A stretch of 60,542 nucleotides of DNA, filler included, from Squatina squatina (taxonomy: Eukaryota): assembly GCA_031763465.1 (NCBI GenBank). It is 4 parts of 4 records of this genome, joined end to end, with 100 filler letters (N's around TTAATTAATTAA, not from the genome) between each part and the next. Parts side by side here need not be neighbours in the genome. Positions count along the whole stretch, not along the records: positions 1 to 12,963 come from JARFOE010000219.1; 3 more parts are not named here. One strand, given 5' to 3'. The translations under genes and the position numbers were made by a program. This document shows, in pieces, positions 5,461 to 9,761 of the stretch; positions within the stretch are counted from its first letter, which is position 1; the number at the start of each line of letters is the position of its first letter. The notes beneath the pieces are model-generated. The model searched no databases, had not been told where the DNA came from, and saw only the letters and a program-made list of their open reading frames with translations.

Positions 5461-6889
5461 GTCAGTTTTTAATAACTGTCAAATTATTGATGTGACTGGT
5501 TTTGTAATTAAATATTTACACTGCAGTAGATGGAAACCAAGATGGTTGGCCAATTCTCTCAATTGCGTTGAGTCATCATCTCAGGAGTACCACAAAAGTA
5601 TAGTGCTTATAAATTAATCTTTTTTGTCAGCTGCCCCAAATTTAATTTATGGCTAGTGCATACTCAGTGATGTTACCCATAGTAAGTTAGACAATACATT
5701 GTTTTATGCTATGTAAAGATATATAATGAATTATATCTATTATCTTTTATGACAGCAAGGATACAGAGGAAAGATGGTCGAGATCATCCACCAGGCTGCA
5801 GGTAGATAGGTAGCGTGTAGCAGTGTTGAGTACTGGTATGAAGAAAGTAGGTCAGATGGGTGAGAGGTCCGATGGTGACCGCGGGACTTCAGAAGGGATA
5901 AGAGGCCTGAGCAGCTGCAGTTGGTTTAGCGGATGGGTGAATACCATATTGAGTAAGTTAAAAGCACGGCTGGATTCATTAAATGAAAAGCGACCATGGG
6001 CTGCATCAACAGGAGGGAAATTGGTGGTAGTCGAGCAGGGTATTTAAAAAAAAATTAGACTGTGAGGTTATATTATGGGGGTTCAGAATAACATAGAGCT
6101 GCAATAAAATACACTGAAAATTAATTTTTATTATAAAATTTGAAGTTTTACTTACCTTTGGGAGTTCTTCCGCAGGAATTTAGCAGCGACAGTACCCCGG
6201 GAGTGCCCCACTCCGCGAGTGGTGACGATATCATCACCGTGCGCAGTGACTCATTTTTGCCCTGGAGCGAAATTTTCGTAGCGCCCCCTGATGCTATGCC
6301 GGGCGATGCCAGCGACAGCTTCGGAGGCTGTAGGATGCTCATCGGGCGAAATGTAAAGGGAAGGTGGTGATTTTTTTAAATGGCCGACTTACCGACAGCC
6401 NNNNNNNNNNNNNNNNNNNNNNNNNNNNNNNNNNNNNNNNNNNNNNNNNNNNNNNNNNNNNNNNNNNNNNNNNNNNNNNNNNNNNNNNNNNNNNNNNNNN
6501 TTATCTTGCCACCGTTTTGTTCCTTGGACCCAGGACCCCAGAGATCCTCTGTTCCATGGAAGGTTCAAGAACATCGACCATTACCAAGATTCTTCAGCCA
6601 CCCCTCTGTTTGGACCTCAATGGACAGATGAAGGTGCTTACTGCAGGCATAGGCTCAATTACGTTAGTTTGCTCTGGAAATCCTGGGACAGCGTTGTAGG
6701 GGTGGAAAGCTGACACAGGGTGTCTCTGCCCTGATGTTCATTTCAATGCACCAGGGAATTGAGCATTCCTTAGGCACAATGGAGTGAGAAATCTGCAGCC
6801 CAATATTTAAAGGTTTAAAAGTGAACGCTGTTCTACTTTAACAAAATAACAAACTAATTATGTTTTGGTTAATACTCCTTATTTTCTAG

Positions 6890-7137
6890 ATAATCCATGG
6901 AATGACTTGTCTTCTTCAATGCTCTTCATAAATGATAATTTGGGTGATGATAACCGCCTTAGGATACCTAAACAACTTATGAAGCATCAGACACAGCGAG
7001 ACGTTTTCAGCAACAGCTCCAGTAATGAATCCTTGGACTGCTGGATAAATAATACCAGACAGTCACAGCACAGACTGATGAGAACTAAGACCGAAAGGAT
7101 CCCAGTGTTTGATGAATTCTTTGATCAAGAATTATAG
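6890..7137 (+). CDS. CCDC198: CCDC198 (C14orf105) last coding exon
   Basis: Acceptor ttattttctag|AT. Ends ...SNSSSNESLD...RLMRTKTERIPVFDEFFDQEL*, matching the remembered human terminus LVRTRTERIPLFDEFFDQE; syntenic with SLC35F4. Confidence 0.9.
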
Positions 7138-7764
7138 CTATTTAGTTGAGCAGAACCAAGCCAAATAATTTCACAGACATATTTGACAATTTAATCAGTA
7201 CAGATACAGAAATATGGACAACTGTATCCAACCTGGAGTCTAGGGCCTTGAAATTGGAGCCTTTAGCATCAGCCATTAAGGCCAATTTGGAAGAGAAAAT
7301 GGCGGCTACATCGCTTCCAGCACAGAATGAGGCAGCCTCCATTTTGGGTAGGTCGGCAGCGCTGCCGTTGCTTGCGCTCGCTGCACATTTTAAATGATCC
7401 AGATCGTCATGTCAATCGGCATTCAATGCCTGAATTGACGCACAATCTCTGATTTTGGAAATTGTTTCTCTTAATAGCCCCCTCTCCAAACCATGCATGG
7501 AAGAGTGTACATGCAGCAGTACAATAGAGACACTGCCAGTGCTTCTTAAAGGGGCACACACGGCTTTCAAGTTCAGATTTTTGATTTTAGACGAGCTTCT
7601 TTAAATTTTATTNNNNNNNNNNNNNNNNNNNNNNNNNNNNNNNNNNNNNNNNNNNNNNNNNNNNNNNNNNNNNNNNNNNNNNNNNNNNNNNNNNNNNNNN
7701 NNNNNNNNNNNNAAGGGCCGAATGGCCTACTCCTGCACCTATTTTCTATGTTTCTATGTTTCTA

Positions 7765-8216
7765 AGACATTCTGTATTATTCCAACTAGAATAACTCCTG
7801 TTGGCACAAAGACCTTATTACCACTGACTAAACAAAAGAGGACGAACATAATGCAACTGAAGAAGGGAGTGAGAGACACCATACAACAATATCTGGTAAA
7901 GTTTGGGTATGATTTACCCTGCTGGAGGAGAATCTAACTGAGCTGGTAAATAAGATTGAACACACTGCTGAAACGTTTAAAGTCCTGAAGGTTGCTGCTT
8001 GGGAAAACTATCACCAGTGATATACCCTGATAGAATGACATTGGAATCACCAGAATCGAAATAACACCCTGGATGTTGCGATTATTATTGTGGGTCCAGT
8101 TGGTCAGTATGGTACTCCTAATGGGAGAATGGATGATAAGAATTCGGGAAAGAAGACGGCGTCAGCAAGACATGGTTGCAACGGTGTCGGTTGTAAAAAT
8201 CAAATGCCCAATTTAA
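7765..8216 (+). pseudogene. Decayed env-like ORF C-terminus of an endogenous retrovirus-like element
   Basis: Reconstruction across two compensating frameshifts (~7920, ~8000): FCIIPTRITPVGTKTLLPLT...YLVKFGYDLP/LEENLTELVNKIEHTAETFKVLK/TITSDIP**NDIGITRIEITPWMLRLLLWVQLVSMVLLMGEWMIRIRERRRRQQ...*. Heptad-like helix, hydrophobic segment and basic tail, directly upstream of a PPT and LTR. Confidence 0.65.
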
Positions 8217-8261
8217 GTGTCTCATGAGGGCCGAAAATTCATGAGTTGCTGGAGGGAGACA

Positions 8262-8887
8262 TGTAAGAAATGAACTGACATGTGGAACAGCTGCGGGATA
8301 CAGATAGTTAATTGCATGCTCACAGCATTCGTTGAAATTCCAAGAATGAAACATCAATTGAAATGCCAAGAATGAAATGAGAAGTCATGAGATGTCAATC
8401 ACCATCCTCACAGAATGGGTTAGCCCCAGATGCTTCGCAAGAGACATCAACCGCCATCCACACAGAATGAATCAGCACCCGATGTGTCTGGAGAGACAAG
8501 TATATCAGGCTCGAAGCTTTGGGAGATTCTAGTGTAGGATAAAGGAAAAAAAGGCACCAACATGACTGACTCAGCAAGATGTGAAACAATAAATATAAGT
8601 CAAAAAGATCAAACCTCTTAAACTGCAGTGGGGAAGAAGGGACCTGATCTGGTTAATCGGACCCAGAGGACCTACAATCAACATGGCCTGACTGTTTGTG
8701 AATGAATGTATGTATAAATTAACAATTATTGTGTAAAGCCATAGGTTTTGTTTTTGAGCGTAATAAGTGGAAAAAGTACTGATCAATTGCTAATAAAGTT
8801 AGAGTTGAATCAGATTAGATTTTGTCACAGTATTCTTCAGTAAGCCTTGGAGTCTGAACTCTCTTTGTGAGAAGACAAACTCTTACA
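8262..8887 (+). mobile_element. 3' LTR (626 bp) of ERV-like element
   Basis: Perfect 7-bp inverted termini TGTAAGA (8262-8268) and TCTTACA (8881-8887); purine tract GGAGGGAGACA at 8251-8261; TATAA 8594-8598; AATAAA 8792-8797. Confidence 0.8.
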
Positions 8888-8889
8888 GA

Positions 8890-9761
8890 ACATCGAAACA
8901 GGATTAAGCCATTCAGCCCCTTGAACCTGTTCTTCCATTCAATGAGATCATGGCCAATCTGTATCTTAACTCCATCAGCCAGCCTTGGCTCCATATTCTT
9001 TTATACACTTGTCTCGTAAAAATCTATCAATATCAGGTTTACAATTATTAATTGAGCTAATATCTACTGCTTTTTTTTAACATGAAAAGTGTTTCTTAAC
9101 TTCTCTCCTGAATGGCCTGGTTCCGATTTTAAGGTTGTGTCCCCTTATACTAGACTTCCCCACCAGGGGAGAAAGTTTCTCTTTAACTATCCTATCAATT
9201 CTTTCCAAAATCCTACAAACCTCAATCAAATCACTCCTTAATCTTTTATATTCCAAAGAATACAAGCCTAGTTTATGTGATCTCTCCTCAAAATCAAACC
9301 CTTGGAGTCCTGGTAACATCCTGGTGAATCTGCGCTGCATTCCTTCCAAGGCCGATCTATCCTTTCTAAGGTGCAGTGTCCAGAACTGTACACAGTGCTC
9401 CAGATGTGGTCTAACCAGAGCTTTGTGTAGCCGTAGCAAAACTTTTTAATATTCTAACCCTCTAGTTATAAAGGCTAACATTCCAATAGCCTTTTTGATT
9501 ATTTTTTGTACCTGACTGCTACATTTTAGTAATCCATGTTCATGGACTTCTAAATCTCTTTGGACTTCCATTGTTCCTAGCTCTTCACCATTTAAATAAT
9601 ACTCAGACCTATCCTTTTCTGCTCCAAAATGGATGATCTCACACTTAGCTGCATTGAAATCCATCTGCCATAGTTTCGCCCACTCACTTAATCTATCAAT
9701 GTCGCTTTGTAATTTTATGCCCGCGCCTCCATTCCTTACTGTACCACCAATCTTTGTGTCA
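8890..9761 (-). mobile_element. CR1 LINE 3' part (RT C-terminus plus 3' UTR)
   Basis: DTKIGGTV...LQSDIDRLSEWAKLWQMDFNAAKCEIIHFG and LVRPHLEHCVQFW...LEGMQRRFTRMLPGL...RGHNLKI are classic CR1 ORF2 motifs; frameshifted. Confidence 0.92.

Follow-up and report, generated by a model that had tools for sequence, protein, structure and literature searches.

The retroviral 3′ end and its surroundings

The window, i.e. the whole stretch of 60,542 nucleotides from Squatina squatina analysed here (assembly GCA_031763465.1), consists of four stretches. The first of these (contig C219) harbors a retroviral fragment at positions 7765-8887, in a 2-kb piece (7713-9761) between two 100-N gaps. Quite probably this fragment, now dead and truncated, was the 3′ end of an old multicopy endogenous retrovirus (ERV). 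The virus is likely related to snakehead retrovirus (SnRV; clade Huo / class III), and its envelope protein (Env) is predicted to be F-type with an immunoglobulin (Ig)-like head. The window copy itself is an ordinary dead fragment that encodes nothing, since the env remnant contains several frame changes and two stops (8028-8033) besides its own stop codon (8214-8216). The element comprises the following features:

7765-8216, plus strand: broken 3′ part of env, with the end of a beta-rich region, the second heptad helix, a transmembrane (TM) segment and a cytoplasmic tail (from translation and DNA copies)
7920-8009, plus strand: heptad-like helix, in a frame differing from that of its neighbours (from translation)
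8082-8162, plus strand: TM segment (8082-8138; Kyte-Doolittle 1.87 over 19 residues) and basic stop-transfer tail RIRERRRR (8139-8162)
8251-8259, plus strand: polypurine tract (PPT), followed by 2 nt and the long terminal repeat (LTR); the same tract occurs in copies
8262-8887, plus strand: 3′ LTR of 626 bp, TGT...ACA (from own-genome copies)
8594-8598, plus strand: likely TATA box, a TATA-like context being among the commonest column patterns of the copies
8792-8797, plus strand: polyadenylation signal AATAAA, kept in 30 of 39 copies

Homologs of the env piece (7765-8261), with DNA identities of 73-88%, occur on 39 further contigs that were scored. The heptad-like helix, which is continuous with the TM segment in copies L026, L027 and L036, would correspond to the second heptad repeat (HR2) of a fusion protein. 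The window env matches the Env of a sister family, L078, directly (E 7e-4), and the same-family copy L026 matches it with an E-value of 1e-17. A GAGGGAGG-type tract is located 2 nt before the TGT in 10 of 12 env-bearing loci examined; of the other two, one is purine-rich but off pattern and one yielded no end.

The LTR begins with TGTAAGA at 8262 and ends with TCTTACA at 8887, and its U3 region contains two 52-nt units in tandem (8386-8489) and two 20-nt repeats (8332-8377). In the own-genome search 40 of 244 first-look candidates were scored, 39 of them being other loci, which are 73-85% identical in the best piece; the 3′ end is reached by 25 of these and the 5′ end by 15. TATAA occurs at 8594 and 8713, and AATAAA at 8588 (kept in only 2/39 copies) and 8792. 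As few copies retain the TATAA at 8713 (TATA[AT]A in 7/39), the one at 8594 appears the likelier TATA box, its strict count of 4/39 being depressed by alignment gaps. All elements named in the original prediction of an env-PPT-3′ LTR end (termini, purine tract, TATAA, AATAAA, hydrophobic segment and RIRERRRR) were located, and they extend beyond chance, as the family is multicopy with shared ends (39 other loci; AATAAA at 8792 in 30/39; PPT in 10/12). The perfect TGTAAGA/TCTTACA termini are indeed present, but this 7-bp inverted end is confined to the window copy: many copies end in CCTACA, and TACA closes 19 of 21 readable 3′ ends.

Pairwise distances between U5-side LTR pieces (n = 40) range from 0.094 to 0.237 (median 0.163), with the copy nearest to the window at 0.114, and by this measure the LTR family is old. 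A provirus with both LTRs, from which it could be dated, did not turn up in the long scaffolds examined, many of them N-masked. The LTR comes in two lengths: copies L011, L028, L031, L033 and L035 carry roughly 100-130 additional bases shortly after its 5′ end, and the window has the short form. In L037 another element, presumably Harbinger-like and with a DDE-like open frame (1592-2642), sits just inside the LTR of an env copy.

The surroundings of the element are as follows:

6850-7137, plus strand: last coding exon of a neighbouring DUF4619 gene, outside the element (Pfam PF15398, E 1.3e-11, profile positions 244-296 of 296)
7713-7764, plus strand: 3′ tail of a long interspersed nuclear element (LINE), abutting and truncating env; microsatellite-ended; over 33 nt it is 76% complementary to the other LINE tail (8887-8919)
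8888-9761, minus strand: second LINE 3′ end, its tail abutting the LTR end, with minus-strand open reading frames at 9077-9445 and 9446-9761

Homology of env to the other copies begins at 7765, right where the LINE tail stops, and the element is bounded on both sides by LINE tails, each pointing towards it. Both LINEs are presumably CR1-like; the one at 8888-9761 gave no Pfam or PDB match. No pol and no further env was found elsewhere in the window or in 10 kb on either side. Everything upstream of the env tail would have been lost from this copy or lie inside the assembly gap (100 N, size unknown) that separates the DUF4619 exon from the env piece, and the insertion may later have been cut by LINEs or by deletion. 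The DUF4619 gene, presumably CCDC198, is on the same strand as the LTR. AATAAA and ATTAAA are absent from the assembled sequence between its stop codon and the LTR (7135-8797), the first ones being those of the LTR at 8588 and 8792. The LTR could terminate the mRNA of this gene, with the gap of unknown size in between. The 3′ flank of the exon also holds an open stretch of 83 aa (7146-7397), which has no Pfam match and is probably another repeat.

Organization of the complete element

The order of the full element was assembled across overlapping copies, a single intact provirus not being seen. Natural copies L018, L197, L054, L051, L053 and L038 (77-88% DNA identity) chain an LTR, primer-binding site (PBS), gag, protease (PR), reverse transcriptase (RT), RNase H, integrase (IN) and env to the env tail of the window. 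In more detailed form the order in other copies is LTR, 5-nt spacer, tRNA-Lys(UUU) primer site, coiled-coil-rich gag, in-frame TGA, PR-RT-tether-RNase H-IN, env, PPT and LTR. This is the Retroviridae order LTR-PBS-gag-pro-pol-env-PPT-LTR, with tether and second RNase H present, and the retroviral pol expected beside env does lie upstream of it in other copies. Gag carries a CCHC knuckle, and the in-frame TGA stands before pol in 6 of 7 copies as well as in the sister family L116. The primer site following six LTR copies matches the end of the tRNA-Lys(TTT) of this genome at 17, 16, 14, 12, 11 and 10 of 18 ungapped positions. Sister families in the same genome are better preserved: L069 consists of RNase H-IN followed by a 519-aa open env piece, whereas L116 comprises gag, TGA and a 1279-aa PR-RT-tether-RNase H-IN frame. 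The group is large, given that first-look candidates for Env and Pol pieces number 916 to 2477.

With this organization, readthrough of the TGA would yield Pol, as has been suggested for XtERV-S (PMC8278194), and reverse transcription would be primed by tRNA-Lys and the PPT. In L006, L016, L020, L082, L157 and L018 a constant 5 nt separate the terminal CA from the primer site, versus 2 nt on the PPT side, a spacing that would mean unequal end processing by integrase. L018 (1-2744, G000:C398191) combines env, PPT, LTR, PBS and gag in a single contig, and its LTR is common to two tandem proviruses. L193 (315-387) harbors a tRNA with a Lys-type 3′ end yet a TTG anticodon, called as Gln by ARAGORN.

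Relationships of the polymerase

RT identity was counted by hand for L116 against four references in three conserved blocks of together 104 positions. Identical residues amount to 67 with SnRV, 47 with simian foamy virus, 46 with the lokiretrovirus Loki-Lch and 41 with murine leukaemia virus (MuLV), and an RNase H block is common to L116 and SnRV. These sequence comparisons indicate that the polymerase likely resembles that of snakehead retrovirus, not that of lokiretroviruses. An RT tree of 56 rows, made from all matches covering >190 of 264 positions with shorter ones excluded, and without SnRV, foamy or Loki references, placed L116 on the retrovirus side (100/100), outside Ty3/gypsy and outside the gamma/epsilon clade (95/97), unresolved among frog and coelacanth rows. 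The nearest database Pols to L116 are one protein at 73%, followed by those annotated 'NYNRIN-like' from coelacanth and frog (48-51%); the IMG/VR scan gave no pol relatives.

The original prediction had suggested a lokiretrovirus-like lineage, and a lokiretrovirus, which would be the first in cartilaginous fish, was also our own first and then rather confident reading. The dual RNase H, the likeness by eye of the Env layout and several motifs to the published Loki Env, and the 'NYNRIN-like' annotation of the closest Pols, the Loki IN being closest to CGIN1/NYNRIN, are consistent with it. Dual RNase H is, however, general among retroviruses, and RT motif B reads PFG in 24/24 Loki RTs in the supplementary alignment of PMC7947760 but in 0/8 readable sites of the window's own family, L116 having LPQGF. 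Moreover, the published Loki screen scored 0/3 Chondrichthyes, among them the whale shark, which holds a relative of the window Env (P0051). The reading was dropped on motif B and on identity (46/104 versus 67/104 for SnRV), which largely refute it, and we now consider it highly improbable. For the polymerase the lokiretroviral suggestion thus fails, while for Env it was partly right, since this protein, like that of lokiretroviruses, is likely of F type.

A foamy-like ERV (clade Tu) is very unlikely too, although the best matches among solved structures are foamy for RT (E 6e-52, ahead of MLV at 5e-43 and Ty3 at 6e-32), for IN (E 2e-32) and for the Env profile (E 0.041), and the primer is Lys. 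Gag has a CCHC knuckle, which to our knowledge foamy Gag lacks. RT identity to foamy virus is 47/104 as against 67/104 to SnRV, and no SnRV chain is present among the PDB matches, so that foamy virus is by default the closest class III relative with a solved structure. Furthermore, pol is in frame with gag behind the TGA, in contrast to the separate Pol start of foamy viruses (PMC8278194).

SnRV-related ERVs have been published before: they are reported from elephant shark (CmiERV lineage I, PMC4422223), form the main ERV class of coelacanth (PMC4977317) and constitute clade Huo, which takes in class III (PMC6001957). With SnRV and these ERVs (PMC4422223, PMC6001957) the present family shares, besides RT and RNase H similarity, an aquatic host, gag-pol-env and dual RNase H. 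Word searches of the CmiERV supplement (PMC4422223) for primer site and PPT gave no match, where line breaks may hide some. The TGT...ACA ends reported as conserved in class III (PMC8278194) are also found here. The class III frog element XtERV-S has these ends and joins gag and pol in frame across a TGA, but is described in the same paper as ERV-L-related and Ser-primed, with a gamma-like TM protein containing an immunosuppressive domain. The suggestion of an undescribed family accordingly applies to the Env design only and not to the lineage, which is of a known kind, SnRV-like ERVs being published from elephant shark (PMC4422223).

The envelope protein and its significance

From sequence, the Env anatomy follows an F-type layout of furin site, fusion peptide, first heptad repeat, beta-rich domains, HR2 and TM. 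Among six full-length relatives a furin motif is present in four, CXXC in two and CX6CC in none, which bears out the earlier suggestion of a non-gamma Env. The predicted model shows a 63-residue helix followed by strands. Env is predicted to be an F-type (respiratory syncytial virus-type) fusion protein capped by an antibody-like Ig domain, the Ig fold of the head being a prediction as well. The best PDB match of the Env profile is the foamy Env mentioned above. Single Env pieces gave no match in PDB and only weak Ig hints in Pfam, and a word-limited search of a 5.8-billion sequence collection found nothing for the 519-aa Env of L069. Comparison of the F-side model with a viral structure library gave no significant fold match, the best being a torovirus spike (E 3.9e-3).

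It is conceivable, but unlikely, that Env on this SnRV-like Pol is another class I fusogen and that the F-type signals arose by chance, as the lack of a significant sequence or structure match to F would suggest. Three partly independent weak signals (Foldseek, Env profile and Atlas) nevertheless agree, and a beta-rich, cysteine-containing block of about 200 residues lies between the helices, a block that is not known from gamma- or beta-type TM proteins. The likeness by eye to the Loki Env, itself with a published PF00523 match, also argues for an F-type protein.

Several observations weigh against an SnRV-related retrovirus with an F-type, Ig-headed Env. The primer site matches tRNA-Lys(TTT) and not tRNA-Arg, whereas SnRV uses tRNA-Arg. 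The SnRV placement is a hand count with motifs, made on sister L116 rather than on the window's own subfamily, and the tree lacks SnRV, foamy and Loki rows. A 4-bp target-site duplication is only suggestive (11/28 matches in 7 solo LTRs, permutation p 0.067). Both folds were obtained with sister-family queries, not with the window's own sequence, and the F-side model (mean pLDDT 61, pTM 0.29) gave Foldseek E-values of at least 0.096 with TM-scores of 0.11-0.15. VIA Z-scores are only 3.4-4.5 for F and foamy chains, and the wide VIA structure search of this model returned helical bundles only. PF00523 was matched by 0/36 Env family members, and the Atlas score of 0.92 to the F0 cluster is to be read against shuffled proteins, which reach 0.9 in 4-10 of 100 cases. 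Relative P0074 has no Ig domain, and receptor binding by the predicted domain is a proposal.

If the F-type prediction holds, furin would cut Env at the RxKR/RKKR site, the Ig domain may grip a host receptor, and the fusion peptide and two heptad helices would drive membrane fusion through a trimer of hairpins, as in paramyxo/pneumovirus F and foamy Env (PMC11468914). Similar to the Loki Env (PMC7947760), the protein has a signal peptide, RxKR site, fusion peptide, coiled coil, beta-rich region and TM, and by eye a similar motif where the F2-like segment begins; in the Loki Envs examined, however, this segment directly follows the signal peptide without an Ig domain, and RT motif B and identity exclude membership. 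Foamy Env and paramyxo/pneumovirus F (class Ib, PMC11468914) share the predicted core and gave the best weak profile and fold matches. According to that source, the receptor-binding domain of foamy Env is inserted inside the surface subunit, whereas here the Ig module would be N-terminal to the F2-like segment, and in paramyxo/pneumoviruses attachment is by a separate protein. Gamma-type Envs with an IgV-like receptor-binding domain (MLV, FeLV, Env-Pb1; bioRxiv 10.1101/2024.03.17.585361) also have an N-terminal Ig-like module, but on another fusion scaffold, CX6CC being missing in 6/6 relatives here.

Named Env relatives are chondrichthyan in 20 of 25 cases. Full-length open env frames occur in bamboo shark and two frogs (P0044, P0050, and P0080 with P0083 and P0084) and are possibly young proviruses or host-retained env genes. 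Env pieces also lie inside the shark gene models fbxo15, Niban 1-like and cadherin-related 5-like (P0060, P0041, P0045), either as annotation chimeras or as exonised env.

The combination of an SnRV-like Pol, an F-type Env and an Ig head is new, its parts each being known singly: F-type Env from Loki, foamy (PMC11468914) and errantiviruses, and IgV-like heads from gamma-type Env (bioRxiv 10.1101/2024.03.17.585361). No description of this design was found in the literature covered, to which most subscription journals and Repbase do not belong, and supplements of the bioRxiv preprint may list such Envs. Seeing no similarity between Loki and canonical Env, Wang and Han (PMC7947760) did not choose among four scenarios of how retroviral Env arose, and the foamy structure (PMC11468914) provides one F-type case. 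If true, the pairing of an SnRV-like polymerase with an F-type Env would add a third case, inside the canonical retroviruses, and with the Ig head there would be a second scaffold that carries an antibody-like module in retroviruses. Tentatively, and with somewhat more doubt than confidence, we propose that the SnRV-related branch in sharks, rays, coelacanth and frogs has an F-type Env homologous to those of Loki and foamy viruses, mostly capped by a captured Ig domain. F-type Env would then occur on three lineages, Loki, foamy and Huo, and may have been the ancestral type of retroviral Env, with gamma- and beta-type Env as later replacements. The third F-type case would also make the origin of Env testable, by setting an Env tree against an RT tree.
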